Shown: positions 1 through 64,000, counted from the first letter of the stretch. The stretch is DNA of 64,000 nucleotides from Candidatus Woesebacteria bacterium (GCA_016700095.1 CP065002.1:867141-931140); one strand, 5' to 3'. The notes: generated by a model not told the origin, from the letters alone. Numbers and translations: made by a program.

Positions 1-1392
1 TTCGGATTTCTTTTCATAACCCAATTCTTCCACTTTGATTCTCGCGGTATCACCGGGATCAAATATATCCTGAACGTAACGCATCAACCACACTGTATTA
101 TAGGAAGCATCTAGATTTTCGAGATTAACCGTCTGCACTATTTTGTAATTACAGAGACTAAAAAATCCCTCGTTACACTGTTTATTGATATCAGTTTTTT
201 TACTTAAATAAAAGTTATAAGCTTCTTTCTGCGAGTCTTTCACAAATACAGTAGCTACTTTCCCCGAAGAGTTAAGTGATATGTAATCAACCGCACCTCG
301 CCAGTTCTCTCTTTGAAAACGAGTATTGGTTAGGTAGATAAGACTTGATGAGATATTAATAAATAATACTAAACAAATAGCGGCATATCCGAGCTTGGCT
401 TCTAGTTTACTAACACCCAGGCTAATAAGTAAATACAAAGCGGGTAGCACAAAAAGAAGCCTGAAGTACGAAAATACCGGGATCACCAGACCAATAATTG
501 AAGCAGTCAAAATAGGTATAAGTAGCCAGAACAGTAACGTTTTGCTCATTAAATCAATTTTCCGTATCTTAGGTAATGCATAAATTACAAGAGATGAATA
601 AACAATCCCGCAAAAAGCAGTAAGCGTGGCATACAAGTATTTGTTCTCAAAACTTATTCTTCCAAAAATAAATTTAGCAGGGAATATCGCAACTTCATGA
701 AAACTTGTTTTACCCAATATATTCCACCAACCTGGCGCGTTTTCTCGTACACTTAATCCCGATAGTAATTGCTTAATAAATAATGGAGCAAATACCGTGC
801 TTGCCAATCCAATTAAAATTAAAGTTACCGCAAATCGTTTAATATCCTTTCTGTCCCGTTTGATAAATACATAAATTACAAAAACCGGCAACATAAGAAA
901 ACTTAAGTAATGGGTAAATAATGCGAAAAAATATGCTATACCAAAACCGCGCCAATTTTTTGTAATAAGAAAATACACTGAAATTGATATTAAAAATGTT
1001 GCCAGAGAATACATTCTCGCTTCCTGTGAGTAGTAGATAAGTAATCCCGACGTCGCACTAAAACTACTTGCAATGATACCGACTTTTTTATTGGCTACTT
1101 TTTCACCAATTAAGTATGTTACAAAAACTATTCCCAGTGATGATATTAAAGAAATCATACGCAGTGACAACTCACTAACTCCAAACACCCCTACCCAAAA
1201 ATGCAAAACTAAATAATAAAATGGGGGGTGAAAATCGGAAGGTAAGAATTTGGTGAACAAGTCCGGCAAAGTATAAAATGTCGTAAGCACACTAGTTGCC
1301 TCATCAAGCCAAAGAGATTGGTTTATAGAAATTAGCCTTAATAATAAAGACAAAACGAGTATGAAAATTAATCCTATTCTATTTTTAAGCAT
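1..1392 (-). CDS. GT-C fold membrane glycosyltransferase, ArnT/PMT (GT39/PMT_2)-like. Partial: the C-terminus runs off the window start.
   Basis: Hand translation of the minus strand from ATG at 1392 gives MLKNRIGLIFILVLSLLLRLISINQSLWLDEATSV..., a short N-terminus, a TM helix, then a D-E pair, followed by many TM segments. No complete ORF is listed for 1..1429, so the reading frame is open to position 1. Confidence 0.6.
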   Translation of the reverse strand, partial: MLKNRIGLIFILVLSLLLRLISINQSLWLDEATSVLTTFYTLPDLFTKFLPSDFHPPFYYLVLHFWVGVFGVSELSLRMISLISSLGIVFVTYLIGEKVANKKVGIIASSFSATSGLLIYYSQEARMYSLATFLISISVYFLITKNWRGFGIAYFFALFTHYLSFLMLPVFVIYVFIKRDRKDIKRFAVTLILIGLASTVFAPLFIKQLLSGLSVRENAPGWWNILGKTSFHEVAIFPAKFIFGRISFENKYLYATLTAFCGIVYSSLVIYALPKIRKIDLMSKTLLFWLLIPILTASIIGLVIPVFSYFRLLFVLPALYLLISLGVSKLEAKLGYAAICLVLFINISSSLIYLTNTRFQRENWRGAVDYISLNSSGKVATVFVKDSQKEAYNFYLSKKTDINKQCNEGFFSLCNYKIVQTVNLENLDASYNTVWLMRYVQDIFDPGDTARIKVEELGYEKKSE

Positions 1393-1429
1393 TTACTTCA
1401 TGAACGTGTTGTGACTAGATCAGTCAACG

Positions 1430-2269
1430 TTATTTACCCATCTTTTTGAACAATACATACTCACAGATTCCCCAAAATACTCCAAGATCATAAACAATTT
1501 TAAATATCACGAAATTGATCGTCCTACTTTTAATAGACTTAACACAACCAACAACAAGGGAAACCGGCAACAAAGAGCGACTAAGTGCATATATTACTCC
1601 CAAAACGCCAAACTTATATTTTCTTTTACCAACCCATTTAGCTTGCGTAAATATTTCTGCCAGATTATCGGGATTTTCGTGGTAATATTTCGCTCCACTG
1701 ACAACCGACGCTTCGTAACCCAATTTGTCGCTAAGATAATCATCAGTATAATGCCCTCCGGGCAGAAATCCACCAACTCGGTCAAATTCCGACTTCAGGA
1801 GTGCTCTAAACACCTTTTGCTTGTCTGGATAATTTGTGGGGTGTCGTAGTTTTTGCGGCCAACCTTCATTAATATTCCAACACCGAGCCCATACATGTGA
1901 CCAATTGCTCACATATTCATTCTTACTAAAAGTTCCCTTTACTTTGTTTTGAACTATCGGTGTAACAAGATCGGTCAAGAATTTTTTATCAAACGTCATA
2001 TCCGCATCTAGAAAGACTAATATTTTCCCATTTGCTTTTTTTGCCCCCCAATTTCTTGCCATCCCCGGACCCTCATGGCGCTTTCTATAAATGTGTAGTT
2101 TGTAATTGTTAACCGTTACTTTATTGGCAATATCTACTGTTTTATCCTTCGATCCATCATCAACTACAATCACCTCAAAACGGTCAAAGTCTTGGTCGTC
2201 AAGCGAACGCAGGCATTTACTAATAACTTTTGCCTCATTAAAAGTCGGAATAACAATCGATACTTTCAT
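1430..2269 (-). CDS. GT2 (GT-A fold) glycosyltransferase
   Basis: N-terminal VSIVIPTFNEAKVI...VIVVDDGSKDKT...FLDADM (DXD) are hallmark GT2 motifs. 4-bp overlap with the upstream gene. Confidence 0.8.
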   Translation of the reverse strand: MKVSIVIPTFNEAKVISKCLRSLDDQDFDRFEVIVVDDGSKDKTVDIANKVTVNNYKLHIYRKRHEGPGMARNWGAKKANGKILVFLDADMTFDKKFLTDLVTPIVQNKVKGTFSKNEYVSNWSHVWARCWNINEGWPQKLRHPTNYPDKQKVFRALLKSEFDRVGGFLPGGHYTDDYLSDKLGYEASVVSGAKYYHENPDNLAEIFTQAKWVGKRKYKFGVLGVIYALSRSLLPVSLVVGCVKSIKSRTINFVIFKIVYDLGVFWGICEYVLFKKMGK

Positions 2270-3351
2270 ATGATTTTTATAAATAGTTTTTCGTATTCAC
2301 TAACTACAATGTCCCATGAATACCTCATCGCTTGGTTTCGAGACTTCTCTCCCCAATTTGTCTCCAGCGCTTTCGTTATTTCATGCGTAAAATCTTCTTT
2401 GTTTTCGGAATTAATAAATACTCCGGCATCACCTACAATTTCTCTGCGAATCGGATCATCAATAGTAACAATCGGGAGCCCACTTGCCATCGCTTCGACA
2501 AGTACAATACCAAACGCTTCCGACTCAAGGGGTACAAAAACAAATACATCTGCAGAACGATAAACCGACGGCATTGCCGAATGTTCAACCGAAACAAACT
2601 CAATTCGATCGCCAAGTTTTGCCCGACCCAACTTCGTCAGCTCATTTTTTAAATAGCCATTCCCCACTACAAGTAGTTGGTAATGATTGAGTCTGCTTAC
2701 ATTATCTATAACCAAATCAACGCGTTTGCATGGTACTAACGCATTTACAGTAAGTACAACAGGGTGCATCAAGGAGTGTTTATATTTTCTTCCTTGTGGT
2801 GAAAAACGCGCAAGATCAACACCGTTTGGAATATAAGTTGTTTTTACCAGAGGCATTGCCTTTTTTGCCCATACTTGGGCAAGTTTGGATATGGCAACAA
2901 AATAATCGGGAAAACTCCATAAGTTATTCCTATCGTCCCATCCAATTCCGGATTGCCCGGAGATAACCATTTTTGCACCGCTTAACCATGTCGCCAATCG
3001 CACCAGCGCGCATTGCCAGCCACCATTGAGCGGAAGAACAATATCATACTTATTCTTCATCAGTTTGGGGAATATTTTTAGAGTATGTATGGCAATTTTT
3101 CTACTCCAATAATCCATAAACCACCTACGTGCCAAAGTACCCGCCATATCTTTTTTATCCCAGTCTAATATTATTTCCGATTTGATAGTTTTGTAATTCA
3201 CTTTATTCTCTTTTGGTCCTGCTTGATACACAGTAACGTCATGCTTTTCACTCAATCTCTTTGCCAATTCATGTATAAACACTTCACCACCACGATTGAT
3301 TCCCCCAGAGAAAAAGCTTACAAATGCTATTTTTAATTTTTTCTTTTCCAT
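2266..3351 (-). CDS. GT4 (GT-B fold) glycosyltransferase
   Basis: C-terminal EAFGIVLVEAMASGLPIV motif (the E-x7-E region of GT4 retaining transferases). 361 aa. Confidence 0.8.
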   Translation of the reverse strand: MEKKKLKIAFVSFFSGGINRGGEVFIHELAKRLSEKHDVTVYQAGPKENKVNYKTIKSEIILDWDKKDMAGTLARRWFMDYWSRKIAIHTLKIFPKLMKNKYDIVLPLNGGWQCALVRLATWLSGAKMVISGQSGIGWDDRNNLWSFPDYFVAISKLAQVWAKKAMPLVKTTYIPNGVDLARFSPQGRKYKHSLMHPVVLTVNALVPCKRVDLVIDNVSRLNHYQLLVVGNGYLKNELTKLGRAKLGDRIEFVSVEHSAMPSVYRSADVFVFVPLESEAFGIVLVEAMASGLPIVTIDDPIRREIVGDAGVFINSENKEDFTHEITKALETNWGEKSRNQAMRYSWDIVVSEYEKLFIKII

Positions 3352-4724
3352 ATGCTTATATCTTCATCCATCATCCCACTTTCATTATAGTTTACCGTTA
3401 TCCATTTTGTTATTTCTTTTGGCTGATAAGTGCCCAAATCATACCAATTTCCACTTTTTGGTTGTGACCAAATGATAATTTCCGGAGGATTTAACTCCCA
3501 TGCGGCAATAGTGTTTTGTTGAACGTTGGGAATTTCCAAATACCAACCATAATTGTCTACCCACGGTTTTGGAGGTAAAGTTTTCGAGTACACATAAAGC
3601 GACGATGGTAATCCCATTAAGTAGACACTCTCTCCGTACGTAGACACATCACTAATACGATGCGCCAAATTAACGTCTTCGGTACCATAAAATCTAGTCT
3701 CTTTACCCCAATCGTTTGTTATTACTCGCGGGACAATTCCGATAACTAATAAGATACCGGAAATAAGCGCAATTCGTCTAACTTGCCTACTTCTATTTGA
3801 AAAATATGCGGTAAGAAGTATCAAAAAACACAAAGCCGCCTGGAAATGAAAAAACGAAAATCTTGGATAGACCGAAACGAAAGATCCACCGAGGAAAAAA
3901 AGTACAAGCATAATTGTTCGATCTTTGATAATTATATTTCTTGCCTTCACTACTCCAAATACCACAGGGAAAGACAGCAAGGTTAAAATTAGAATATCCT
4001 GGTTTCGCAGTTGCATTTGAACATAGCCGGGAAATTTACTCCAAAACGTGAACGGGTACCATACTACCCAATTTACAAAATATGCCAAGGATCCTTCGAT
4101 GGAAAGTTTAGTCAACAAAATGAAACCAAAGTAGAAAGGTGGAAAAAAAGACGACAGGATAGCTTTCTTGTTTCGCGAATAAACTACGATAAACAATAAG
4201 AATACAATTAAAAATAAACCGGCTGTTTGTTTAATTAAACACGCAATTGAGATAAAACTACTCGCAAGTGCGAAATCGGTCCACCGGGCACTTCCGGTAA
4301 GCGATCGTATTCCGAAATATGTTCCGGCAAGCAAAAATGGCACAAATGCCAAATCGAACCATAGCATATTACCGTCAAGGAAAGGTTGTAGTAAAACGTA
4401 ATAAAGAAGTGCCAACAACGAAATATGTTTATTACCGGTAAGCTTCGAGGCTATTAAATAGACATATAAATCGATAAATATAATAAATATCCAGGTTAAC
4501 AACTTTAAGGCAAAAACATTGTAACCCCATAATGAATACCACAAAGATAACATTCCCGTCAGCATTGGCGGGTATGGATGAATCATGTCCCCAAAAAGTG
4601 CAAATCCGTTATCAAATAAATATGGATATGCTAGCATTTCTGGCCATGCAGTAAATTTCAGACTACCAAGAAAAAACACATGAAGCGAAATTAGTAGTAG
4701 TAGGCCGACAATTGTTTTCTTCAC
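3333..4724 (-). CDS. Polytopic membrane protein, putative GT-C glycosyltransferase (PMT_2/DUF2029-like), with an extracytoplasmic C-terminal domain
   Basis: About 10 predicted TM helices followed by a roughly 130-aa hydrophilic W/Y-rich C-terminus. Sits in an operon with GT2/GT4 genes. No clear DE motif, so the family is uncertain. Confidence 0.45.
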   Translation of the reverse strand: MKKTIVGLLLLISLHVFFLGSLKFTAWPEMLAYPYLFDNGFALFGDMIHPYPPMLTGMLSLWYSLWGYNVFALKLLTWIFIIFIDLYVYLIASKLTGNKHISLLALLYYVLLQPFLDGNMLWFDLAFVPFLLAGTYFGIRSLTGSARWTDFALASSFISIACLIKQTAGLFLIVFLLFIVVYSRNKKAILSSFFPPFYFGFILLTKLSIEGSLAYFVNWVVWYPFTFWSKFPGYVQMQLRNQDILILTLLSFPVVFGVVKARNIIIKDRTIMLVLFFLGGSFVSVYPRFSFFHFQAALCFLILLTAYFSNRSRQVRRIALISGILLVIGIVPRVITNDWGKETRFYGTEDVNLAHRISDVSTYGESVYLMGLPSSLYVYSKTLPPKPWVDNYGWYLEIPNVQQNTIAAWELNPPEIIIWSQPKSGNWYDLGTYQPKEITKWITVNYNESGMMDEDISIWKRKN

Positions 4725-4733: not shown

Positions 4734-5564
4734 CTACTTCTTAATACCGATAACAGCCAGGCTAGAACCACGTTTCGCGCAAGTTGTTATTAAATTGAAA
4801 GGCGCATAAACAATATTTTTGAAAAAGGCTTTTCTAAGGTTTACTAAATTAAATTTCATTAATGCACCTATACTTGCAACGTCAAAGATCCCCGACCATG
4901 AACCCCACCACACTATTTCAAATCCAGCTTTTCTGATAATCATTTTTAAGGTATTTGGTGTGAAGTGGTGAACGTGTTCATTGGGCATGAGATATCCCCA
5001 ATTATTACCCCGTATCTTTGCATCAAAACCACCGAAATTGGGAACATCGATATAAACCAAACCTTTTATTTTTAAAACCGCATAAATTTTTTTGACAACC
5101 GCGACAGGATCTTCAACATGCTCGAAGGTATGATTCATAATGACAACGTCGAAATAATTTAGGGGAAGTTTTGCTTTTTCGAAAGTCGAATTGGTTGTTT
5201 TAATTCCTTTTTTGTTCGCATATTTAAAAGACGCCGATGGTTCGACTCCCCACACCTGCCAACCATGATCTTTAAATATTGATAGCATTGTACCGGTTGA
5301 AGATCCGATATCTAAAATTTTTCCTTTCTTTTTGTATCTTGATATTGTTTGAAAGCGACGTATAAAAATATTTTTAAACAATTCTTCGTCACTTCGATAC
5401 TCTTTGTCATCGCGATGATAATTATCGTATTTTTCGAAATCGCGACAGTTAGTGCGCACTAAACCACATTCCAAACACTCTACAATGTCTTTTCCATTAA
5501 CTTCGAATAAATGTTTATACTTGTCCGATTTACAATATTTACATGTCATATTAATAACCAACAC
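4734..5564 (-). CDS. Class I SAM-dependent methyltransferase with an N-terminal CxxC...CxxC zinc ribbon
   Basis: CKYCKS...CLECG zinc ribbon, then motif I ILDIGSSTGTM and motif II VVIMNHTFEHV. Confidence 0.7.
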   Translation of the reverse strand: MLVINMTCKYCKSDKYKHLFEVNGKDIVECLECGLVRTNCRDFEKYDNYHRDDKEYRSDEELFKNIFIRRFQTISRYKKKGKILDIGSSTGTMLSIFKDHGWQVWGVEPSASFKYANKKGIKTTNSTFEKAKLPLNYFDVVIMNHTFEHVEDPVAVVKKIYAVLKIKGLVYIDVPNFGGFDAKIRGNNWGYLMPNEHVHHFTPNTLKMIIRKAGFEIVWWGSWSGIFDVASIGALMKFNLVNLRKAFFKNIVYAPFNLITTCAKRGSSLAVIGIKK

Positions 5565-6396
5565 CGGGAGTCAGGAGTTTTCTTTTAATTTTTTTAAGCG
5601 GTGTTTCAAATACAGCTCTTTTTTTGAATGAAGTTTTCATTATGCACCAAGGTGATCTAACAAAAGATGGTCGTTCTCTGAAAAAACTTTCCGGGTAATA
5701 GTAATTTTTTGCTACTTCAATTCCCATTTCATACTTTAGTTTTTTCTTACGTTTTGGTACCAACAAATCACCTTTGTCACCATGTGATCTTTGCAAAAAA
5801 GTCATATGCATATAGGGGGCGTGTATAAATTTGATTTTACGCGCAGATCTGTCCTGAATCATCTTCTTGTCCTTATCCGACCAACCCCATGTACCATGTG
5901 GATTTGTCGACGATAGACCGGGAATCATTCTGTTTATTCCCCTTAATCCCAAATGACCCTTTTTCCCCGCAATTTGATAATTGCCAGCGCTTTCATCCTG
6001 GTAATGAAAGATATCTCCTACCATATTTATACTGGGAACAAACACTGACTCGTACGTGAGTCCTCGTACTTGTCTTATGAAATCCGTAATGTCGCGTATT
6101 GATTTTTCCCACCATACTTCATCTGCATCCACAACCATAAACCAATCCGTATTTGTCGCACTTAACATGTCGGCTCGAACCTCTCTGAATTGTTCCGGAT
6201 TAACTTCGCCAACTAATTTTAGATCGATTTTATTAGGATAACGGTGTTTCAACTCTTTAGCAATTAACACACTATCATCCGTACTCCCCGTATCCCACAA
6301 CAACAACTTGTCAACGTAATCAATTACGCTTTGTACCGAATACCACAGAAAACGGTCTTCATTTTTAAATAAAGTATGTACTGATATGGTGTTCAC
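5551..6396 (-). CDS. GT-A-like glycosyltransferase (DXD-containing), family uncertain
   Basis: TLFKNEDRFL...LLWDTGSTDDS...FMVVDADEVWW matches the GT-A nucleotide-sugar binding layout. Confidence 0.5.
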   Translation of the reverse strand: MNTISVHTLFKNEDRFLWYSVQSVIDYVDKLLLWDTGSTDDSVLIAKELKHRYPNKIDLKLVGEVNPEQFREVRADMLSATNTDWFMVVDADEVWWEKSIRDITDFIRQVRGLTYESVFVPSINMVGDIFHYQDESAGNYQIAGKKGHLGLRGINRMIPGLSSTNPHGTWGWSDKDKKMIQDRSARKIKFIHAPYMHMTFLQRSHGDKGDLLVPKRKKKLKYEMGIEVAKNYYYPESFFRERPSFVRSPWCIMKTSFKKRAVFETPLKKIKRKLLTPGVGY

Positions 6397-10350: not shown

Positions 10351-10496
10351 GTAATGTTAATTTATAAATTGTTAATCCAAGCAAACCAAGGTAGAGGTAT
10401 TTTGATAATTGAATTGCCCGACCGGGGTGATGTGTGGCAAGAAAAAAACAAACTATAAATAGAATTACCGATGTTATACTTACTAATACACGTTTC
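10351..10496. promoter_or_regulatory. Divergent intergenic region between the 902-aa GT-C gene (minus) and the YfhO/GT39 pair (plus). Presumed bidirectional promoter.
   Basis: This is the only strand switch to plus for multi-gene transcription in the first 30 kb. AT-rich with TATAAT-like hexamers. No experimental support. Confidence 0.3.
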
Positions 10497-12458: not shown

Positions 12459-12489
12459 TTATGATTGCAAATTATTGCATGTTTAGTCA

Positions 12490-14705: not shown

Positions 14706-14707
14706 AT

Positions 14708-45532: not shown

Positions 45533-45533
45533 A

Positions 45534-48465: not shown

Positions 48466-48513
48466 ACAATCTTGTACGATTATACTGCAGAAAAATGAAG
48501 CGATACAGCGCAA

Positions 48514-51177: not shown

Positions 51178-51210
51178 ATTATTTATTGCGTTATTACTTT
51201 GCTCTTTACG

Positions 51211-54182: not shown

Positions 54183-54308
54183 TTTCTGGTGACTAAAGCT
54201 ATTGAACACACATCTCAACTAAAAGACGAAGCTATAAACGACAACATCGATGCTCATATAATTGACGCGGTGTTTGGTAAAACAAAGACCGTGAAGAAGT
54301 TTTATTAA
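54183..54308 (+). other. In-frame continuation of the fumarase-family ORF after the TAG (41 codons), retaining homology to the fumarase C-terminus
   Basis: FLVTKAIEHTSQLKDEAINDNIDAHIIDAVFGKTKT is read in the same frame immediately after TAG. This parallels FumC ...[25 protein letters not shown].... Confidence 0.45.
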
Positions 54309-55177: not shown

Positions 55178-55183
55178 AGTGAA

Positions 55184-56626: not shown

Positions 56627-57904
56627 TTATAATTTATTTATTATATTTGCCACCTTTTCACCCAATTCAACTGCGTAATTTGTTCCTCTATCCCAAGGAT
56701 AAACTTGTTGAATGTTAGCTAAGTACAGACCTTCAATTGGAGTTTCAAAAGGTGGTATTTGCTTAGAATAATTAAGGGGAATTATTGGTTGTGCAAACGA
56801 AGCCTTGAATACATAGCTATCATTTATCCAAGACTTATTAAAAGATCGATTAATTCTTTTTAACGACGTGGTAAATTCATTAACGAGTGCTTCTTGTGTA
56901 TATGAGAAATACTTATGATTAACGGGTAAATAATTTCCAATATAAACTAAGTTTTCATCGTTGTAGTGTTTTTTATCTATAAGATGTGTATGTTCGACAA
57001 CAGCGAGAAATGGAAACGATGTATCGTTCACATTTAACCAATAAGTATTGTCTTTTAGAAATTCGTGTTTTAATGACAACAGAAGTGTTATGGCGCCCAA
57101 TCCCTTAAGCGGTTTTAAACTATTTATATAACCTTGGGGTAACCCGCTTGTTAATTTTATAAACATACTCGTTGGAAGAGTGCAAATCACAAAATCATAT
57201 TCGTTAGGTGTTCGCCCCTTGTTTGTGATTAATATTCCCTTTTTAGTTTTTTCAATTCCAATTGTTTCTTCATTGTAAATAATTTTTCCTCCTTCTTTCT
57301 GAAATTCATCTGCGATGCTTTGCGCAAACGCTTGAAAACCCTCCTCGGGATATCCCAAAGCCGAACTTCTTTTTTTTATTCTTGCCCAAAACCATGATGC
57401 CGGAATCTCTTTGGAGAAGTCACCAAACTTACCTTCCATCAAAGGTTGCCAAATTAATTGCCAAGATTTTCTACCCATATATCTTTCCAGATAATTATGA
57501 GCAGTCTGCGATTCCATTTTTTTCCAAAAAGGCGTAGTTTTTAAATAAGCAAGTACCATGCCGGTTCGAATCCTGTCAGTTACGGATAATTGGGAAAATT
57601 GCAGTAAACTTAAGGGGCTGTCAAGTTGAAATAATTCATCTTTAATAATAACTGATGTTTTTGGTCTAGAAAAAATTATCGGGTGATGTATTTCTTTGGC
57701 AAGTTTTTTGATATACGTATCTGAAGTAAACCAATGATGATAGTGTTCTTCAATAGCCCACTCCCATTTGCCGGCTCGAAAGCCACTCGCCAAACCGCCG
57801 GGTTTTGATGAGGATTCATAAATAGTTACACCGTGTCCCTTTTTTGCCAAAGTTAAACCAGCCGTTAGGCCCACATAACCAGCACCGATTATTCCAATTT
57901 TCAT
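56627..57904 (-). CDS. Rossmann-fold FAD/NAD(P)-dependent oxidoreductase (amine-oxidase / protoporphyrinogen-oxidase / UDP-galactopyranose-mutase-like superfamily)
   Basis: MKIGIIGAGYVGLTAGLTLAKKGHGVTIYESSSKPGGLASGF is a GxGxxG dinucleotide-binding motif followed by an acidic residue and GG. 425 aa. Confidence 0.6.
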   Translation of the reverse strand: MKIGIIGAGYVGLTAGLTLAKKGHGVTIYESSSKPGGLASGFRAGKWEWAIEEHYHHWFTSDTYIKKLAKEIHHPIIFSRPKTSVIIKDELFQLDSPLSLLQFSQLSVTDRIRTGMVLAYLKTTPFWKKMESQTAHNYLERYMGRKSWQLIWQPLMEGKFGDFSKEIPASWFWARIKKRSSALGYPEEGFQAFAQSIADEFQKEGGKIIYNEETIGIEKTKKGILITNKGRTPNEYDFVICTLPTSMFIKLTSGLPQGYINSLKPLKGLGAITLLLSLKHEFLKDNTYWLNVNDTSFPFLAVVEHTHLIDKKHYNDENLVYIGNYLPVNHKYFSYTQEALVNEFTTSLKRINRSFNKSWINDSYVFKASFAQPIIPLNYSKQIPPFETPIEGLYLANIQQVYPWDRGTNYAVELGEKVANIINKL

Positions 57905-57906: not shown

Positions 57907-59553
57907 TTAATTTGCTACAATTTTATAAGCGGTACTACCATTTGGAAACTTAATAGTCTTAACAATATTAGCCGCATCAGGAATTTCCTCATCAGTCCCA
58001 ACTATGAGTGAATTAGGATAAGTGTTGGGGGTGTTGGGCCATTCAATTGAATTAAATCTAAACTTTTCAAATTCTCTGACAGTTGAAAAACCATACCCAT
58101 CACGAGGGGACAAAACATGTGCTCCCTGAAATTCGGCGGTGGGAACTTTGAGATAAAACAAAGTTAAAATGTATGGTTGATCATACCGATCAGTAATAAT
58201 TATATAATCAAACTCATCTTTCACACTTTCAACATAAGAGATCATTTCTTGAAATCCGTATTGCGAAGAATAAGGATATGCACGAGGCATGTGAAAATTA
58301 TATAAATATTCATATCTCGCAAACGACCAGACTAACATGATGAACATAATTGGAAATAATGTGTATTTTAATAAAGTATTTTGTTTAAATATATTAAGCA
58401 TGTTTGTCAAACCATATGCCGATATAAGGCAAAGGGGTATTATCATGTTATGAGAACGAAGTGCATGTGGCGATTGAAAAGTTAATGCGGCAGCAAAAGG
58501 AGCAATCAAAAGCCACCAAAGCATAAAACTCCATTTACTATTTACTCCTCTTGAAATGAAATAAAGGCCAGCGATCAAAAGCAGTGAATCAATCAAATAC
58601 ATCTGGCCGTGGTCGGGGACTTTATTGCGTTGAATATCATCGCCTGATATAAACAAAAAGTCTCCCGAGAAGTGCTCTCCCCAATTTTCTGCAATCGCAA
58701 TAGCATAATTTACGAGTTTGTTGTGGATTAATTCAGCCACTAGACCATCAACGTTTTCATGTTCGCCGCGCTGTTCATTAATTTTATTTAATGGTCCAAT
58801 ATCAGCAAATATTCCTACTCCGGCGGCACGCGACATACCTGCCTCTCCGGTTAAATCTTTTGCAAGCGGCAGCAGAAGGACCAATCCGAAGATCCCAGCA
58901 ATTAGTATGGGTTTAAAATTTTTCAGTAAATATTTAAAATTACTAAGTACATATCCAAGTAATAAAAGTGGGATCACAATTCTTGCGGCATGATAAGTAT
59001 ATAGGCCAAGGACAAAAAACAAAGATGAGTATTTGAAATACCTAGTATTCTTAGCGGATTTCACCAGGAACAAGACACCTATTGTTATAAAAAACGTAGC
59101 AATATTTACTTCCCATCCACCTCTTGAAAAATGTATATGCCACGGAGAAATAGCCAAAAATAATGCTGCAATAGTAGGAAAATCGAGTGTCAAATTTAAT
59201 ATTTTTATTTTTACGTCTTTTCCGCGTAGTTCTTTGGCTAATAGGTAGATAAGAATAATAGTTGCAGTTCCCATTAGCGCGCCGGGGGCTCTTACCACCC
59301 ATATGTTAAGACCCAATAGTTTAACAAACGGCAATACAATATAGAAATATAAACCTGGTTTATAATCATTAAACGATTGGAAGTGAAGCGGCCATGCGTT
59401 GCCGTGTTCATCCATTCCTGTATTTACCAAACTCCAAGCATTGTAACCAATTGCAGCCTCGTCGGCGTTTAATGCAGGCAATGTGTTTAATCTATTAAAT
59501 CGCAAATACAACCCTAAAATTAGTATTAATATTATCAATATGTTTTTTCTCAT
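57907..59553 (-). CDS. GT-C glycosyltransferase, ArnT/PMT (GT39/PMT_2)-like. Tandem paralog 1 of 4.
   Basis: LRFNRLNTLPALNADEAAIGYNAWSL (DE motif), WHIHFSRGGWE motif, about 12 TM helices. Confidence 0.7.
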   Translation of the reverse strand: MRKNILIILILILGLYLRFNRLNTLPALNADEAAIGYNAWSLVNTGMDEHGNAWPLHFQSFNDYKPGLYFYIVLPFVKLLGLNIWVVRAPGALMGTATIILIYLLAKELRGKDVKIKILNLTLDFPTIAALFLAISPWHIHFSRGGWEVNIATFFITIGVLFLVKSAKNTRYFKYSSLFFVLGLYTYHAARIVIPLLLLGYVLSNFKYLLKNFKPILIAGIFGLVLLLPLAKDLTGEAGMSRAAGVGIFADIGPLNKINEQRGEHENVDGLVAELIHNKLVNYAIAIAENWGEHFSGDFLFISGDDIQRNKVPDHGQMYLIDSLLLIAGLYFISRGVNSKWSFMLWWLLIAPFAAALTFQSPHALRSHNMIIPLCLISAYGLTNMLNIFKQNTLLKYTLFPIMFIMLVWSFARYEYLYNFHMPRAYPYSSQYGFQEMISYVESVKDEFDYIIITDRYDQPYILTLFYLKVPTAEFQGAHVLSPRDGYGFSTVREFEKFRFNSIEWPNTPNTYPNSLIVGTDEEIPDAANIVKTIKFPNGSTAYKIVAN

Positions 59554-59555
59554 AA

Positions 59556-61268
59556 CTAGAATACCTTATATCGATTTACATTTGACTCATCAAGAACCTC
59601 AACAAGTCTAAAAATCATCTCACCGGTTGGTAAGGTAATTTCTCCGATTTGTTTAAATTCTCCCGGATCAACTGAATCCTGGATTGGAATTGTCTCGGAA
59701 TCCGCAGCAAACAATGTACCAAAGTCTCCACGCGCTGTCGTCCAATTTAAGTATTCAAAACTTATATTATCAAGATTTGTCACCCTACCAACATCACCAT
59801 ACCTGCTTTCTTCTAGGTATGCATTTTTTTGATAAGTCGCAGGATCGTATTTCTGATAAAAAAGAAAATAAATATACGGTTGAGCATACGTAAAATGTAT
59901 TTTTACTTTTTTATAATCATGTTGGATTGGTGTAATTATTTCGACTAGTTGTTTATATCCATAATCCCAATATCTCGCGTTATGAATTGGTTGGTGAACG
60001 AAATATGCATCGAGAAAATAAAATACACTCGCCAAATACAATAAAAATACTCCTAAAATGCCAACATATTTCACCTTACCCCATTCCGACACTTTCTGTG
60101 AAAAGAAAGACAGACCAAAAGCAGTCACTACTACCAAAGGAATAACCATGTTATAAGACCTCACTGCATGAATTTGGTCGCGCGATAAGGCGGATGGCAA
60201 AGGAGCAAGCAAAAGCCAAAGTAAAATGAAACGAGCACCTGTGTTGTTAGCATTTATCAAAATATATAGACCGCAAAGTAAAAAAAGTGAATCAACAAAT
60301 AGCATTTCTCCCGAGCTGGGAGCTGAATGTCTGGGATTTTGCCAATCACCCTCAAAAAATAGAAATCTCGGAGAAAAGTGATTGAACCACCTTCCCATAA
60401 TTCCCTTGGTTATATTTAGATTTTCAGAATAATAAAGATAGTATTCCGGCGATCCAAATTTAACATCCGCAGTCGCCAAAAGATCCGTTAGATATTCTTG
60501 CGGCCTTGTATATGAAAACACGCTAAACACCTTCAGCCGTCCAGTTTCCCCTTTTGAAAATGATGCAATTATTGGAAATGCCACAATCAGTCCAACAAAA
60601 AAAGACAACACTAAAACTTTTAAGTTAATCTTACTAATTTTCTTTCTGTAAATAATTGCAAGAAGAAATAGAACTATTAGACTGGAAAGTTTCGCGCCTT
60701 GATAGGCAGTCAATGTCGCTCCGAAAGATAGTGCAGCAGGTATCAGATATTTATTATTTGTAAACGATTTTAGAACACAATATATCCCCAAAAGTGTCAA
60801 TGTTAACGCTATGTTAATTTCCCAAGCACCTCGTGAAAAATGAATGTGCCAGGGTGAAATAGCAAGGATAAGTGATGATAATAACGCCGGAGAAAATACT
60901 CCTTTATTTTTTTTATTTTCTACTTCTAATAATAAATTGACAATATGATAAATTATAAAAACTGCAAATATTCCTGAAAGTGAACTGGCCAAACGAACAG
61001 ACACTTCATTAAGGTCAAAAAGAAATACAAACGGAACTGTGGCGTATACATACAAACCGGGTTTGTAATCTCCAAAGGATTTAAATACAATCGGGAGCAG
61101 TTTTCCATATTCATCACGTCCTGTTTTTAGAATCGAGTATGCGTTATAACCAAGCGCCGCCTCATCGGGAGTTAAATGTGGTGGATTTACTCCCAGATTC
61201 CATATTCGCAAAAAGGCAGCAATTACCAATATAGCTAGAAGTGAATAACGTTTCATGTATTGTCTCAT
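59556..61268 (-). CDS. GT-C glycosyltransferase, ArnT/PMT (GT39/PMT_2)-like. Tandem paralog 2 of 4.
   Basis: LRIWNLGVNPPHLTPDEAALGYNAYSI, WHIHFSRGAWE. About 50% amino-acid identity to paralog 1 in the N-terminal region. Confidence 0.7.
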   Translation of the reverse strand: MRQYMKRYSLLAILVIAAFLRIWNLGVNPPHLTPDEAALGYNAYSILKTGRDEYGKLLPIVFKSFGDYKPGLYVYATVPFVFLFDLNEVSVRLASSLSGIFAVFIIYHIVNLLLEVENKKNKGVFSPALLSSLILAISPWHIHFSRGAWEINIALTLTLLGIYCVLKSFTNNKYLIPAALSFGATLTAYQGAKLSSLIVLFLLAIIYRKKISKINLKVLVLSFFVGLIVAFPIIASFSKGETGRLKVFSVFSYTRPQEYLTDLLATADVKFGSPEYYLYYSENLNITKGIMGRWFNHFSPRFLFFEGDWQNPRHSAPSSGEMLFVDSLFLLCGLYILINANNTGARFILLWLLLAPLPSALSRDQIHAVRSYNMVIPLVVVTAFGLSFFSQKVSEWGKVKYVGILGVFLLYLASVFYFLDAYFVHQPIHNARYWDYGYKQLVEIITPIQHDYKKVKIHFTYAQPYIYFLFYQKYDPATYQKNAYLEESRYGDVGRVTNLDNISFEYLNWTTARGDFGTLFAADSETIPIQDSVDPGEFKQIGEITLPTGEMIFRLVEVLDESNVNRYKVF

Positions 61269-61321
61269 GTTACTGACAAAATCTAATTTGCTCTTTGCGA
61301 TATATAATTCTAATTGACAAG

Positions 61322-63148
61322 CTATTGATTAGCATATATTTCAAAGGCGGGTTCATTATTCAAAAAGTATACAGTTTCGTATTTTTTCCATCCACTAGGC
61401 ATATTTCCGGGTGAGGTGATTAACAAACATTTTATTTCATTGCAATTAATATCCCCACCACTTTCAAGCACAAAGTGGTTTTCTTCTCTATCGCCACTTT
61501 TTATTTGCCAATCATTGACAAAATAAAACTTATCAAATGCATCTACCCAAAACCATTCCGTTTGCTCAAAACGAATGAGATTCGGATCATTCCGATACGA
61601 CTCGGGTTTCCATCGCCATGGCGCCCCACCCCCAACCCCTCCGTAGAAAAGAAAAAATTCGTGAGGTTCACCGTATTTTTTAGTCACTATTATTTTGTCG
61701 TAATCGTAATAGTACTGTTTAGTGTATTGAACTACTTGTTGATACCCGTATTGCCAACTCCATGAATAGTTACTTCTATATGAAGTAAAGTATCCATGCA
61801 AATAGTTCTCGGCGGATAAGATTATCAAGAAAATATAAATTGGTGTTATTATCCATGCCATATTTTTTAAAGTTATACGTTTTCCCTTGTTAACGAAATT
61901 CATAAACGTTAAATAACCAAATGCAGTTATAATCATTGGTGAAGGAAGCATTGTCGAGGAACGTAAAACATGTGGTGCTTCCCGAGTAATACTCGACGCA
62001 ATAGGTCCGACAAAAAACCAAAAAAGAATAATATTTCCTACTCTGTTTTTTAGTCTCAACAAAGCAAAGACTCCGATTACAAGAAATATTGCGTTAATAA
62101 TATAGAGTAACCCGTGTTTGGGAACGCTAAACTGATATTGACTACCGCCGTCGGTAAACAAATAATCACCCTTAAAATGAGATGTCCAATTGCTTGCTGC
62201 CTTTTTAATAAAAAATGTTCCCTTATTATGTAAAGCCCGTGCTATAAACGGACTATAAGGTGATGAATTTCGTAATTCATCAATTTGTGCAATTGCACCC
62301 TCGTCAACTATTTCCACTTTACTGTATCTAGCTTGTCCAGCAGGATTAACCAATTGAGCAAACATGGAAGCTGTAAAGAAAAAGAGAATGATAAACGAGA
62401 ATTTTACCAAATGTACATTTCTAAGATAAATCCCTGCAATTTCCAACCTATAACCTAAAACTAAAATTACGACAAACAAGGGAACAAATATCCTTGCTGA
62501 ATTGTAGGTCCAAACGGCTAATCCAAAAAATACTGCCGACCAAACTAAATTCATATATTTTTTCTCTGCCGATATTAGCAAGTAGGTCGCAAACGTAATG
62601 AAAAAGAGCGCAAGATTAGCCTCAAAAGCTGCACGGGAAAGAAATAGTGTCCAGGGTTCAATAGCAACAAGAAACGCTGTAAGTAAAGAGAGATTTTTTA
62701 ATCTTTCTTTTGACGCTATTTCGTTTTGGAAAAGCGTATGTGTCAAGAAATAAGAAACAATTACCAACCCGACACCGGCAAGCATTGAGGGTAATCTCAC
62801 TGCTAGTGTATTTACACCAAATAGTTTTTCCGATAATGCTGTAACATAAATATACACCGGCAATTTATAATCTCCATAAGCACGAAATATTGTTGGCATC
62901 TTCTTACCCCATTCGTCATATCCCGAAGAAAGAAGTGAATATGCATTATAACCATGGCTCACCTCATCCCAATTTAGCGATGGGGGTGTATTGTCAATAG
63001 CTACAAACCGTACAAGAATGGAAAAAACCACAATAGAAAGAAGTGTCATGTTTTTTGTGTTTCTTACTTTGTGAATTACAGGACACGATAAAACACCCCG
63101 ACCACAATTTCGCAGTAAATATTTTATAGTTTTTCTCATAGATTTCAT
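61322..63148 (-). CDS. GT-C glycosyltransferase, ArnT/PMT (GT39/PMT_2)-like. Tandem paralog 3 of 4.
   Basis: DNTPPSLNWDEVSHGYNAYSLL (DE motif). Multiple TM helices and a soluble C-terminal domain. Confidence 0.65.
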   Translation of the reverse strand: MKSMRKTIKYLLRNCGRGVLSCPVIHKVRNTKNMTLLSIVVFSILVRFVAIDNTPPSLNWDEVSHGYNAYSLLSSGYDEWGKKMPTIFRAYGDYKLPVYIYVTALSEKLFGVNTLAVRLPSMLAGVGLVIVSYFLTHTLFQNEIASKERLKNLSLLTAFLVAIEPWTLFLSRAAFEANLALFFITFATYLLISAEKKYMNLVWSAVFFGLAVWTYNSARIFVPLFVVILVLGYRLEIAGIYLRNVHLVKFSFIILFFFTASMFAQLVNPAGQARYSKVEIVDEGAIAQIDELRNSSPYSPFIARALHNKGTFFIKKAASNWTSHFKGDYLFTDGGSQYQFSVPKHGLLYIINAIFLVIGVFALLRLKNRVGNIILFWFFVGPIASSITREAPHVLRSSTMLPSPMIITAFGYLTFMNFVNKGKRITLKNMAWIITPIYIFLIILSAENYLHGYFTSYRSNYSWSWQYGYQQVVQYTKQYYYDYDKIIVTKKYGEPHEFFLFYGGVGGGAPWRWKPESYRNDPNLIRFEQTEWFWVDAFDKFYFVNDWQIKSGDREENHFVLESGGDINCNEIKCLLITSPGNMPSGWKKYETVYFLNNEPAFEIYANQ

Positions 63149-64000
63149 TTTAAAGCAAATTCCGTCGAACTGGGATTAACAAAATAAATCGCCGTCTCGC
63201 CACTGGGATAAGCAACTTCATACTCAGGTACGGTATTTAATGGAAATTCTTCTTTCTTTCCCACCAGTAATGTCTTACCTAAATATTTTCGTTTTTCGAA
63301 ATCAATATTTTCAAACTTGATATTTCCCAATGAATAACTTCCAAGTTGGTCGAGAAATTTTAAATTTAGATCGCGATATCTACCCCAATTTTTTGCTTCA
63401 CCTTGAACCATCTTAGGGTCATATTCGTTGTAAAAGGCAAAATAAATATGGGGTTCGGAAAGTGTACGACTCACAATTATAAACTGATATCCTTTTATAT
63501 TATTTAAATACTTAACCATGTCCTTTCTTCCATAAAGCATAGATGGCGCGGTGACGTAAGCCGACTTGCCAAAATACTGATAAGAAAACTCAATTAAGTT
63601 AAAACCAATAAGTGCTGCCAATGTAATTACGAGAAGTCGTCTTTGGGGCACCGACACATTATCAATTCTAATAAGTGTGAGTATCCAATAAGCACCAATT
63701 GCCATGGCAATTTGTAAGGCAGGAAGCATTATCACCGATCTGTTACCAGCAAAACCGACACCTGTAGACAGCGCTGCAGGAATCGGAGCACACACTAACC
63801 AAAAAACAATTAACCACATCTCCTTCAGGTGTCTATACTTAACCACGCCGACAAGAAATGCAAAAAGTAGTATCAATTCAAATGGATAGATTACTCCACG
63901 GCCCGGTATCATTCCATACGTCGCTTCGGCAGGTCCGTGGTCTACGAGAAATTTGAGTGAATAGTATTGTTTATAGTTTTCAAAGAATCTATTAGTAGTA
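63145..64000 (-). CDS. GT-C glycosyltransferase, ArnT/PMT-like. Tandem paralog 4 of 4. Partial: the N-terminus lies beyond the window end.
   Basis: Hand translation shows the frame stays open upstream of the internal Met at 63912 to the window end (...NRFFENYKQYYSLKFLVDHGPAEATYGMIPG...). WLVCAPIPAALS aligns with WWLLIAPFAAALT and WLLLAPLPSALS of paralogs 1 and 2. Confidence 0.6.
   Translation of the reverse strand, partial: TTNRFFENYKQYYSLKFLVDHGPAEATYGMIPGRGVIYPFELILLFAFLVGVVKYRHLKEMWLIVFWLVCAPIPAALSTGVGFAGNRSVIMLPALQIAMAIGAYWILTLIRIDNVSVPQRRLLVITLAALIGFNLIEFSYQYFGKSAYVTAPSMLYGRKDMVKYLNNIKGYQFIIVSRTLSEPHIYFAFYNEYDPKMVQGEAKNWGRYRDLNLKFLDQLGSYSLGNIKFENIDFEKRKYLGKTLLVGKKEEFPLNTVPEYEVAYPSGETAIYFVNPSSTEFALK

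Follow-up and report, generated by a model that had tools for sequence, protein, structure and literature searches.

We propose that a large glycosylation locus of Candidatus Woesebacteria (CPR/Patescibacteria; complete genome of 1.27 Mb) encodes a Wzx/Wzy_C-type undecaprenyl-PP pathway together with many GT-C modules acting outside the membrane to decorate or extend glycans, and that its apparent lack of an initiating phosphoglycosyltransferase (PGT) and of a Wzy protein is mostly an effect of where the analyzed stretch of 64,000 nt (hereafter the window) ends. We attribute to this explanation as a whole a probability of about 0.7. The window is the larger arm, probably also the more variable one, of a gene cluster for cell-envelope glycans. 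It contains 16 GT-Cs, 11 GT2s, four GT4s, two Wzx flippases and four methyltransferases, as well as sugar-nucleotide enzymes, which agrees with a first-pass annotation that had described a locus dominated by GT-Cs with two Wzx-like flippases (g07 and g39; Pfam). The features are listed below with their strand in brackets (a dot where none is given).

1..1392 (-): g01, PMT_2 GT-C of the conserved core string (Pfam PMT_2, 33.7 bits); first 464 codons of a 479-aa protein (full length from contig L001) whose 3' end lies outside
1430..2269 (-): g02, ordinary GT2, conserved core gene, QQS38595.1 (Pfam)
2266..3351 (-): g03, GT4 (GT-B), conserved core gene (Pfam Glycos_transf_1 and Glyco_transf_4, PF13439)
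3333..4724 (-): g04, PMT_2 GT-C (Pfam, 34 bits)
4734..6396 (-): g05, SAM methyltransferase, and g06, GT2 (Pfam)
6393..7697 (-): g07, Wzx-type (MOP) flippase, about 12 TM helices (Pfam Polysacc_synt, E 2.9e-20, and Polysacc_synt_3)
7642..10350 (-): g08, 902-aa AftD/YfhO-like GT-C (BLASTP to g13)
10434..13980 (+): g09, weakly assigned YfhO-like GT-C (Pfam YfhO C-terminal match, 24.1 bits, below cut-off; about 10 TM helices), and g10, PMT_2 GT-C (Pfam, 37.3 bits)
13977..15139 (-): g11, short DPM1/AglJ/PpgS-like GT2 (NCBIfam), and g12, 143-aa membrane protein
15081..18038 (-): g13, 985-aa AftD-like GT-C (Pfam GT-C_AftD, 31 bits, cut-off 26)
18022..20707 (-): g14, weakly assigned PMT_2-like GT-C (Pfam PMT_2, 18 bits, below cut-off; about 9 TM helices), and g15, GT2 with C-terminal TM helices (Pfam)
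20736..23156 (.): g16-g19, sugar-nucleotide tailoring genes: FdtA-like (g16, short), NeuD/PglB/VioB-type N-acetyltransferase (g17), WcaF/WbbJ-type O-acetyltransferase (g18), WecB-like 2-epimerase (g19) (Pfam, NCBIfam)
23351..25321 (-): g20, rare GT-C family with the motif MYFWxDD after TM1 (hhalign, AF2 model)
25318..27987 (-): g21, g20 paralog with a C-terminal F5/8-type-C domain (phmmer, Pfam)
28044..28808 (-): g22, short AglJ/PpgS-like GT2 (NCBIfam)
28919..30994 (-): g23, PMT/PMT_2 GT-C (Pfam, 41 and 40 bits)
30991..32651 (-): g24 and g25, SAM methyltransferases (Pfam)
32694..33614 (+): g26, GtrB/ArnC/PgfS-type polyprenol-phosphate glycosyltransferase with two C-terminal TM helices (NCBIfam)
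33615..35605 (-): g27 and g28, GT2s of ordinary or PgaC-like type (Pfam, NCBIfam)
35750..36688 (+): g29, ArnC/GtrB-type undecaprenyl-phosphate glycosyltransferase (full-length PDB matches)
36689..38773 (-): g30, PMT_2 GT-C (Pfam, 32.3 bits)
38776..40897 (-): g31, methyltransferase, and g32, GT4 (Pfam)
40894..43293 (-): g33, DegT/PseC/WecE-type sugar aminotransferase, and g34, NDP-hexose 4,6-dehydratase-like SDR (Pfam, NCBIfam)
44387..46400 (-): g36, GT4, and g37, EamA (DMT) transporter, candidate flippase for a lipid-linked sugar (Pfam)
46431..47213 (-): g38, short PpgS/PgfS-like GT2 without TM helices (NCBIfam)
47200..48513 (-): g39, second Wzx-type flippase (Pfam Polysacc_synt, E 3.4e-15)
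48514..51954 (-): g40, GDP-mannose 4,6-dehydratase (NCBIfam gmd, 356 bits, below the cut-off of 415), g41, GT4, g42, cupin, and g43, SDR (Pfam)
54305..56608 (-): g46, GT2, and g47, PMT-type GT-C (Pfam)
56627..57904 (-): g48, FAD-dependent oxidoreductase of the PRK07233 family, between GT-Cs (NCBIfam, 399.7 bits, cut-off 252)
57907..64000 (-): g49, g50, g51 and g52, four tandem PMT_2 GT-C paralogs (Pfam)

The first-pass annotation had reported no PGT, Wzy or Wzz between positions 1 and 64000, and our searches confirm this. A Pfam scan of all 52 non-overlapping ORFs of at least 100 aa in the window gave no match to Bac_transf (PF02397), Glycos_transf_4 (PF00953; MraY/WecA), the Wzy_C/O-antigen polymerase families, Wzz (PF02706) or the ABC transporter domains of an ABC exporter. 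The scan was re-run at E-values up to 5 for four proteins without a family and three weakly assigned ones. Clade HMMs made from the PGT and Wzy_C orthologues of Woesebacteria were also run, with filters off, on the 918 six-frame stop-to-stop segments of the window, where the top score (10.9 bits) was a chance match to a 28-residue transmembrane helix. The matches to PF13439 ("Glyco_transf_4") were rejected as PGTs: only the name is alike, and the domain is the N-terminal half of GT-B (GT4) enzymes. The unassigned ORFs in the window are all too small to encode an overlooked WecA or Wzz, and Wzz/PCP was found neither in the window or contig L001 nor among the Pfam-annotated genes of five related loci (L003-L007).

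The large unassigned membrane proteins were rejected as Wzy since each resolves as a GT-C glycosyltransferase. g08, which matches no Pfam family, combines about 14 TM helices with a large domain on the outside and an anchor at the C-terminus, and is collinear with g13 over two BLASTP segments (E 7e-6 and 2e-6). It also weakly matches NCBIfam MmpA, a protein reported to resemble the AftD membrane domain (PMC8698533). g20 and g21 (phmmer E 1e-19) belong to a rare family with 96 representative clusters in 1.84e9 proteins. Profile-profile comparison with hhalign related this family to the PMT_2 paralogs of the window (95.9%, E 5e-9), and its assignment to Wzy_C was rejected (0.3%). D29 is invariant in the g20 family, and the AF2 model of g20 (pLDDT 90.5) matches only GT-C structures: PglB, EmbC, ArnT, STT3 and AftD. 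g21 carries a discoidin, sugar-binding domain (Pfam F5_F8_type_C, 43.6 bits); this carbohydrate-binding domain is present in half of the family, which suggests a glycan acceptor. At the right end, g49, g50 and g51 are clear paralogs (E 1e-61 to 1e-78), and the window-truncated g52 matches g50 and g51 with E 1e-8 to 1e-12. g52 (at least 554 aa) crosses the window end, and its extension was read from contig L002 to about 64.8 kb.

The cluster also continues to the left. Contig L001 is 100% identical to window positions 1-6587, and its same-strand gene string runs on past position 1 in the order GT4, GT4, acetyltransferase, 188-aa protein, GT2, Wzy_C, PMT_2 and GT4. The Wzy_C protein is encoded 5.0-6.4 kb beyond position 1; its record (QQS38588.1) belongs to a 1,274,238-bp contig and is seven accession numbers away from that of g02, and the flippase gene g07 belongs to the same co-directional string. 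The protein scores 46.4 bits against a cut-off of 31.7, and the best fold match of its model (pLDDT 80.7) is WaaL (7tpg; E 1.2e-5). With 42-66% identity across the clade, it is better conserved than serotype-specific Wzy polymerases usually are, and may thus act as a ligase or polymerize a single conserved polymer. The cluster therefore spans at least about 73 kb (the 64-kb window and the 8.6 kb read leftwards) and is predicted to reach ~80 kb once the predicted PGT region is counted. The absence claimed by the first-pass annotation thus stands inside the window but does not extend to the entire locus.

The left ~4.7 kb of the window (g04 to g01) is part of a conserved co-directional core string that perhaps reaches as far as g06. 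We found orthologue-grade matches to g02 in 43 related loci, strong matches to g03 in 29 and matches to g04 in 49, and orthologues of these genes lie upstream of Wzy_C in relatives. Of 60 representative Woesebacteria/Microgenomates loci, 57 carry a Bac_transf gene on the same strand as Wzy_C and 5.3-9.6 kb downstream of it; the other three have no PGT within 10 kb (compare L004 and L005). The PGT gene adjoins DUF4012 in 54 of 55 loci. The three loci examined gene by gene (L003, L006 and L007) present an order identical to the focal core string as far as this was read (Wzy_C, PMT_2, GT4) and then run on with GT2, GT4, ManC, a PglC-like Bac_transf of ~217 aa (212 bits in L006) and DUF4012. Because the PGT is found at this position in 57 of the 60 loci, the focal PGT probably lies just outside the window, downstream of Wzy_C, where the string should continue with GT2, GT4, ManC, a small PglC-like phosphoglycosyltransferase and DUF4012. 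We predict its location roughly among QQS38580-QQS38584. The clade has over 5,400 close Bac_transf homologues, and the 120 best homologues of the L003 PGT did not include the focal one. The first-pass annotation had foreseen that such genes might lie just outside the window; this was observed directly for Wzy_C and is probable for the PGT from its relatives. Of its two readings, an initiator encoded elsewhere is thus supported, and GT-C glycosylation in place of a PGT is not.

Its description of the locus as dominated by polyprenol-P-sugar synthases was overstated. Only g26 and g29 are firmly assigned, both being full-length ArnC/GtrB/PgfS-type enzymes. g26 matches NCBIfam PgfS (246 bits) and ArnC (162 bits) over the full length, below the equivalog cut-offs, and is a paralog of g29 (E 1e-30), which presents full-length PDB matches to ArnC (9hwj, E 6e-44), GtrB (5eke, E 2e-30) and DPMS (5mlz, E 1e-22). 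Three others are probable synthases, with almost full-length NCBIfam matches: g11 (AglJ, E 2e-21, and a dolichyl-P hexose transferase model) and g22 (AglJ, E 1e-19; PpgS, E 2e-15), both below cut-offs, and g38 (PpgS, E 1.6e-14), which is related to g29 (E 3e-18). The small g12 (3-4 TM helices), for which no family was found, is a candidate partner or flippase. In the remaining GT2s (g02, g06, g15, g27, g28 and g46) the resemblance to known families is confined to the generic GT-A half at the N-terminus, so nothing marks them as polyprenol-P-sugar synthases. The nearest solved structures of g02 (chondroitin synthase, TarS and GalT1; N-domain only) are ordinary glycan-elongating GT2s. Together with the four GT4s and two Wzx, these GT2s imply a cytoplasmic lipid-linked oligosaccharide.

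In the pathway that we favor, the PGT outside the window would prime undecaprenyl phosphate, and cytoplasmic GT4s and GT2s, judging from their families, would build an undecaprenyl-PP-oligosaccharide. A Wzx would translocate it (the flippases g07 and g39 are both present), and the Wzy_C protein would polymerize or ligate it. Separately, the ArnC/GtrB-type and DPM1-like GT2s may load single sugars onto undecaprenyl phosphate; the 16 GT-Cs may then draw on these donors outside the membrane and branch, extend or decorate the polymer, possibly surface proteins as well. The analogy here is with Gtr, ArnC/ArnT, CsbB/YfhO and the mycobacterial Emb/Aft enzymes.

It is also conceivable, if unlikely, that no PGT is involved and that GT-Cs transfer single sugars from polyprenol phosphate to acceptors already in place (for example S-layer proteins, pilins, peptidoglycan or wall polymers), without an undecaprenyl-PP-oligosaccharide. 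The window lacks a PGT, g26 and g29 are genuine ArnC/GtrB-type enzymes, and the 16 GT-Cs repeatedly lie beside GT2s (g11-g13, g15-g14, g22-g21, g29-g30 and g46-g47). However, two Wzx, four GT4s and six GT2s that are not recognizable as polyprenol-P-sugar synthases require a lipid-linked acceptor in the cytoplasm, the same gene string includes Wzy_C 5 kb beyond the window, and 95% of relatives present a syntenic PGT; this scheme probably covers part of the system rather than replacing the PGT-primed pathway. A lipoglycan of the mycobacterial LM/LAM type is rather improbable. Its GT4s would first act, on the cytoplasmic side, on a glycolipid of the membrane, and after a flippase step AftD-like and PMT_2-like GT-Cs would polymerize it outside from polyprenol-P-sugars, a product for which a PGT is unneeded. 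The window GT4s, the AftD-like g13 and g08, the many PMT_2 GT-Cs with polyprenol-P-sugar synthases and the discoidin domain all fit, but we identified no PimA/PimB-specific or lipid-anchor enzyme, CPR bacteria have a minimal lipid metabolism, and Wzx, Wzy_C and the syntenic PGT point to the undecaprenyl-PP route, at least for the core.

Slightly less probable still is an archaeal-style monophosphate route, in which an AglJ/DPM1-like GT2 (g11, g22 or g38) would set the first sugar on polyprenol phosphate, followed by GT2/GT4 extension, Wzx flipping (as proposed for AglR) and en bloc transfer by a GT-C. AglJ is the best NCBIfam model for g11 and g22, and a PpgS/PgfS-type model for g38, all near full length, but every one of these matches is far below the family cut-offs. 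The second Wzx (g39) adjoins g38 in a block without a PGT; in the clade's core cluster, however, a PGT is the rule. The g20 model is as close to oligosaccharyltransferases (PglB, STT3 and AglB) as to ArnT or Emb, at TM-scores of 0.3-0.4 that do not separate OST-like from other GT-Cs. Finally, CPR bacteria are reduced episymbionts and the focal PGT was not directly observed, such that the genome might lack a glycan-priming PGT and the cell depend on host-derived lipid-linked precursors. This is very improbable given the abundance of close Bac_transf homologues in the clade, the Bac_transf gene beside the same core in nearly all relatives and a focal core gene order otherwise identical to theirs.

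The cluster resembles Wzx/Wzy-dependent O-antigen, capsule and enterobacterial-common-antigen loci in its Wzx, its many GT2s and GT4s, its sugar-nucleotide tailoring genes, its membrane protein of the Wzy_C family (WaaL-like fold in the predicted model) and the small Bac_transf PGT at the syntenic position in relatives; its core, like that of the enterobacterial common antigen, is conserved clade-wide. In contrast, Wzy_C and probably the PGT lie outside the window, a DUF4012 protein follows the PGT in place of Wzz/PCP, and an outer membrane or lipid A acceptor is not expected in CPR. GtrB/ArnC-type synthases paired with GT-Cs recall Gtr-type side-chain glycosylation, although that system has one GtrC and this one 16 GT-Cs. 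g26, through PgfS, and g29, through ArnC, likewise recall ArnC/ArnT and the Gram-positive three-component systems (CsbB/GtcA/YfhO for teichoic acids; PgfS/PgfM1/PgfE/PgfM2 for adhesins in S. mutans). YfhO-like and PMT_2 GT-Cs adjoin g26/g29 and the EamA transporter is a possible flippase, but a GtrA/GtcA-family (PF04138) flippase was not found here, scores are below equivalog cut-offs and the modules are far more numerous. Mycobacterial arabinogalactan and LAM (EmbA/B/C, AftA-D, Mpt and PimE with Ppm1/DPA donors) are similarly built or decorated outside the membrane by many GT-Cs from polyprenol-P-sugars; g13 and g08 are AftD-like, and g11-g12-g13 (synthase, small membrane protein, GT-C) recalls the PpgS-Rv3632-GT-C module. 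However, this is another phylum, mycolate and arabinan genes are absent here, and the likeness is at family level only (31 bits to GT-C_AftD).

These results suggest that GT-C glycosylation outside the membrane very likely occurs in this organism, in addition to a PGT-primed pathway and not in place of the PGT. The glycan system is ordinary in kind and unusual in its density of GT-Cs, and it occupies 5% of a 1.27-Mb genome.

All 52 non-overlapping ORFs of at least 100 aa in the window (g01 to g52, numbered from left to right) were scanned with Pfam, and none matched the two families of initiating phosphoglycosyltransferases (PGTs), Bac_transf (PF02397) and Glycos_transf_4 (PF00953, the MraY/WecA family). 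Likewise, no window ORF matched Wzy_C or the other O-antigen polymerase families. We found no Wzz/PCP match (PF02706) in the window, in the contig that extends it to the left (L001) or among the Pfam-listed genes of five related contigs (L003 to L007), and no ABC_tran or ABC2_membrane match (Wzm/Wzt exporter) among the ORFs of the window or of L001. The frequent 'Glyco_transf_4' matches correspond to PF13439, the N-terminal half of GT-B enzymes, which is distinct from PF00953. For a check that is independent of gene calls, we used HMMs of Woesebacteria orthologues of Wzy_C (alignment A1) and of the PGT (alignment A2). The six-frame search covered 918 stop-to-stop segments of at least 30 aa with filters off, and its best score in the window (10.9 bits) corresponded to a single hydrophobic helix. 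One 40-aa segment (42187-42306; E = 0.01 with the PGT HMM) was considered as a PGT remnant and rejected as a hydrophobic-helix match only. These results bear out the first-pass annotation, which had reported no PGT, Wzy, Wzz or ABC exporter at positions 1-64000, together with two Wzx-like flippases; the latter are g07 and g39, which both match Polysacc_synt and Polysacc_synt_3.

The same annotation had extended the absence to the glycosylation locus as a whole, and this part of the claim did not survive the analysis of the left flank. A Logan contig of 31.5 kb (run SRR11674018), of which 15.2 kb were read as L001, is 100% identical to positions 1-6587 of the window and runs on leftward on the same strand. 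It completes g01, a PMT_2 protein of 479 aa, and then encodes, in order, two GT4s, a hexapeptide acyltransferase, a 188-aa membrane protein, a GT2, a Wzy_C protein, a 480-aa PMT_2 GT-C and a GT4. The genes from g08 to g01 and those outside the window form one co-directional string, which includes the following gene.

L001 11608-12972, same strand: Wzy_C protein of 454 aa, 5.0-6.4 kb left of position 1

The Pfam match of this protein is above the cut-off (46.4 bits against 31.7; E = 4.7e-12). Its sequence is identical to QQS38588.1, an 'O-antigen ligase family protein' of Candidatus Woesebacteria bacterium on a contig of 1,274,238 bp; the accession of g02, QQS38595.1, is seven numbers away, in agreement with the gene order. 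The predicted structure (pLDDT 80.7; pTM 0.84) has a single significant fold match, the WaaL O-antigen ligase (7tpg; E = 1.2e-5), followed in the ranking by RodA. Identity across the clade is unusually high for this protein (42-66%), which agrees less well with a serotype-specific Wzy than with a ligase or with the polymerase of a single conserved polymer; the activity is a prediction either way. No PGT of PF02397 or PF00953 was found in the 8.6 kb read to the left of the window, and an exact 36-mer of L001 was absent from the JGI metagenomes. On the right, the window boundary truncates g52, leaving the C-terminal part of a PMT_2 protein with a length of at least 554 aa, and the contig covering this flank (L002) ends about 0.8 kb further.

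We then examined three related contigs, L003 (the closest, with about 60% amino-acid identity), L006 and L007, all of which share the gene order of L001. The order read in these contigs is Wzy_C, PMT_2, GT4 (401 aa), GT2, GT4, a ManC-type nucleotidyltransferase, a PglC-like Bac_transf PGT of 216-222 aa and a DUF4012 protein of 654-692 aa. L007 has one further GT4 in this core, and L003 has four small unrelated genes inserted ahead of a further GT4. The PGT of L006 scores 212 bits against PF02397. DUF4012 is followed by RecO and GlyRS in L006 and L007, and also by MraZ in L006, while L003 ends within DUF4012. No Wzz was found in these three contigs among the neighboring genes inspected.

The association between Wzy_C and the PGT was also found across many genomes. 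Scanning the GTDB species representatives with the Wzy_C alignment yielded 451 relatives; the best 80 loci were kept and PGT linkage was counted in the 60 loci with at least 9.5 kb downstream of Wzy_C. A same-strand Bac_transf lies beyond the end of Wzy_C in 57 of these 60 loci, at a distance of 5.3-9.6 kb (median 6.9 kb), and three relatives present no PGT within reach (compare contigs L004 and L005). A DUF4012-like ORF directly follows the PGT in 54 of 55 cases. Many of the records for these 80 loci are titled 'uncultured Gammaproteobacteria bacterium', and one 'Woesearchaeota archaeon'; these titles are unreliable for taxonomy. Orthologues of g02 and g03, and less strictly of g04 and g01, are found upstream of Wzy_C in the relatives, which places the left end of the window in this conserved core. 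By synteny, the PGT of the focal genome is predicted to lie about 12-16 kb left of position 1, within the rest of the Logan contig. It was not among the best 120 of more than 5,400 homologues of the PGT of L003. Taken together, this evidence points to the missing genes being mainly an effect of the window boundary, which would cut off a conventional priming and Wzx/Wzy_C core. For this reason, we do not carry forward the headline claim of a locus without PGT.

An accessory role in this pathway is possible for the DUF4012 protein. It showed no Wzz signal at E-values up to 1. According to Méheust et al. 2019 (PMC6744442), this family is enriched in CPR and in Gram-positive bacteria and is associated with capsule/EPS loci. 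Shared by Woesebacteria and Microgenomates and devoid of Wzz, the core looks like a clade-wide 'common antigen'.

The window itself is gene-dense, with very short gaps and most genes on the minus strand, and its GC-content is even and low (0.32-0.39); composition gives no sign of a foreign island. No tRNA and no Rfam match were found in it. It makes up 5% of a 1.27-Mb genome and contains 31 glycosyltransferases and the two flippases. The remaining genes include four SAM methyltransferases, an EamA transporter (g37) and enzymes of sugar-nucleotide metabolism: a GDP-mannose 4,6-dehydratase, an NDP-hexose dehydratase-like SDR, a DegT-type aminotransferase, N- and O-acetyltransferases, a WecB-like epimerase and an FdtA-like fragment.

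Glycosyltransferases and selected features of the window.
GT-C membrane glycosyltransferases (16): g01, g04, g08, g09, g10, g13, g14, g20, g21, g23, g30, g47, g49-g52
GT2 (11): g02, g06, g11, g15, g22, g26, g27, g28, g29, g38, g46
GT4 (GT-B; 4): g03, g32, g36, g41
13977-18038: g11-g12-g13, short PpgS/AglJ-like GT2, family-less protein of 143 aa with 3-4 TM helices, AftD-like GT-C
20736-21050: g16, FdtA-like, only 104 aa, covering positions 2-57 of a 131-position profile
23351-27987: g20 and g21, GT-C paralogs
43294-43700: largest non-coding gap (407 bp), no RNA feature found
43701-44312: g35, secreted DUF5667 protein adjoining this gap
51211-51954: g43, SDR in the block of the second Wzx
51992-54182, plus strand: g44 and g45, DHH/DHHA2 phosphoesterase and Lyase_1 protein (adenylosuccinate/fumarate lyase-type), housekeeping
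56627-57904: g48, FAD-dependent oxidoreductase (PRK07233 family; 399.7 bits, above cut-off), wedged amid GT-C genes
57907-64000: g49-g52, four PMT_2 GT-C paralogs in tandem

The housekeeping genes g44 and g45 interrupt the glycosylation island, which indicates that the 'locus' is a patchwork of blocks rather than one operon. The short g16 may be truncated or decayed. The DprE1/DprE2 oxidase/reductase pair epimerises a lipid-linked sugar, and by analogy g48 and g43 may recall the logic of this pair.

The GT2 enzymes differ in how closely they resemble polyprenol-dependent donor synthases. Over its full length, g29 aligns to structures of ArnC (E = 6e-44), GtrB and DPMS, and g26 matches the PgfS and ArnC models; both proteins have two C-terminal TM helices. 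Three others (g11, g22 and g38) resemble the short AglJ/PpgS/DPM1-type enzymes over nearly their full length, with scores far below the family cut-offs. The other six match known families through the generic N-terminal GT-A half only; the nearest solved relatives of g02 are ordinary glycan-elongating enzymes. A processive GT2 with a multi-TM channel, as in synthase-dependent export, was not found in the window: g27 matches PgaC/Glyco_trans_2_3 weakly (88 bits against a cut-off of 422) and has about one predicted TM helix. Neighboring GT2 and GT-C genes recur along the window (g11-g12-g13, g15-g14, g22-g21/g20, g29-g30 and g46-g47), and the layout of g11-g12-g13 is similar to that of the mycobacterial PpgS-Rv3632-GT-C module. 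No window ORF matched the GtrA/GtcA-type flippase family (PF04138); g12 and the EamA protein g37 would be candidates for this role.

The assignment of the 16 GT-Cs was based on matches to PMT_2, PMT or GT-C_AftD in Pfam, some of them below cut-off, on a weak YfhO match for g09 and on pairwise or profile links for g08, g20 and g21. Two collinear stretches of g08 (902 aa) align (E = 7e-6 and 2e-6) with g13, in which Pfam recognizes the GT-C_AftD domain. In addition, g08 weakly matches MmpA, a protein reported to be similar to the membrane domain of AftD (PMC8698533). An amylomaltase match of g08 in the PDB sequence search (E = 8e-4) was unsupported and set aside. No informative match came from the PDB sequence searches with g08, g20, g23, g51, g13 and g22 or with the profiles of Wzy_C and g20.

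The paralogs g20 and g21 define a rare and confidently modelled GT-C family, with 96 representative clusters among 1.84 billion proteins. Its members share the motif MYFWxDD after TM1, in which D29 is invariant, and about half of them carry a C-terminal F5/8-type-C (discoidin) domain, a hint that their acceptors are glycans. In profile-profile comparisons, this family was linked to the PMT_2 paralogs of the window (95.9%; E = 5e-9) and presented no link to Wzy_C (0.3%). The AlphaFold model of g20 (pLDDT 90.5) has significant fold matches to GT-Cs only (PglB, EmbC, ArnT, EmbB and STT3); AglB and AftD fall slightly short of significance. We considered g08, g20 and g21 as divergent Wzy proteins and rejected them, since the g08-g13 alignment, the profile links of g20/g21 and the g20 model all indicate GT-C enzymes. 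Acidic residues in the first outer loop were examined, and seen, in three cases: the g20 family, the PMT_2 paralog alignment (where column D61 is nearly invariant) and g08, g09 and g13, whose acidic residues after TM1 were read by eye.

At the right end of the window, g49, g50 and g51 match each other strongly (pairwise E = 1e-61 to 1e-78) and the matches of the window-truncated g52 to g50 and g51 are weaker (E = 1e-8 to 1e-12). This tandem looks like a local expansion of a gene family. Scanning the GTDB genomes with g51 gave no confirmed relative; the focal genome is thus absent from these genomes. The window ORFs presented no match to PMT_4TMC or MIR and only PMT_2 or partial PMT matches of 22-41 bits. 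A protein acceptor is thus unsupported by membership in the GT39 (Pmt) family.

The system most likely works in two superimposed layers. The core string, with the flippase g07, cytoplasmic GT2s and GT4s, the outside Wzy_C and a PGT placed by synteny, would constitute a Wzx/Wzy-type undecaprenyl-PP pathway. The modules of donor synthase and GT-C are superimposed on it. In analogy to the established activities of the Gtr, ArnC/ArnT, CsbB/YfhO and mycobacterial Emb/Aft families, their GT-Cs would branch or extend glycans on the outer side of the membrane. The system resembles Wzx/Wzy-dependent surface polysaccharide clusters, with exceptionally many decoration modules of the Gtr/Arn/YfhO kind, and its conserved core is like the enterobacterial common antigen in being clade-wide. 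The resemblance to the Wzx/Wzy pathway extends to Wzx, present in the window, and to Wzy_C, present outside it; a PGT is predicted by synteny, and no Wzz was found in the window, in L001 or among the Pfam-listed genes of the related contigs. The Gtr, ArnC/ArnT and CsbB/YfhO systems share the donor GT2 and the GT-C and differ by their GtrA/GtcA flippase, and ABC-transporter-dependent export differs by its Wzm/Wzt. The locus appears to work like a Wzx/Wzy cluster, with its PGT predicted by synteny, and we do not class it as a PGT-less system.

The first idea of the first-pass annotation was a purely PGT-independent system in which GT-Cs glycosylate acceptors directly. This reading is hard to reconcile with the two Wzx flippases, the four GT4s and the six GT2s that are not assignable as donor synthases, and it is undercut by Wzy_C and the syntenic PGT. 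PGT-independent glycosylation probably describes one layer of the system and not the whole. Outside the core, some blocks may, with low probability, follow a lipoglycan route of the LM/LAM type. It is also conceivable, albeit unlikely, that part of the island follows an archaeal-style and PGT-independent route starting on polyprenol monophosphate, for example in the block around the second Wzx (g36-g43) or in the modules g11-g13 and g20-g22. In such a route, an AglJ/DPM1-like GT2 would start the oligosaccharide on polyprenol monophosphate, Wzx or EamA would flip it, and a GT-C of the g20/g21 family, often fused to discoidin, would transfer the complete oligosaccharide in one step to a wall polymer or a surface protein. 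If true, this would be a bacterial equivalent of the Agl glycosylation of haloarchaea, operating in an ultra-small CPR cell.

A locus truly devoid of PGT would have implied a large system of glycan assembly that needs no lipid-pyrophosphate primer; the results fit instead a conventional core truncated by the window edge. One glycan super-cluster takes up at least 5% of the DNA of this 1.27-Mb CPR genome. Its GT-Cs number at least 16, which is on a par with all the GT-Cs of a mycobacterium. The literature on glycosylation or GT-Cs in CPR, Woesebacteria or Microgenomates yielded nothing specific, the only relevant papers being PMC6744442 and PMC8698533. The features worth recording are this density of GT-Cs, the conserved core of Woesebacteria, which includes DUF4012 but lacks Wzz, and the rare GT-C family of g20 and g21. 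In CPR episymbionts, attachment to the host may plausibly be mediated by surface glycans, which makes this locus a reasonable target, although it does not constitute a new kind of system.
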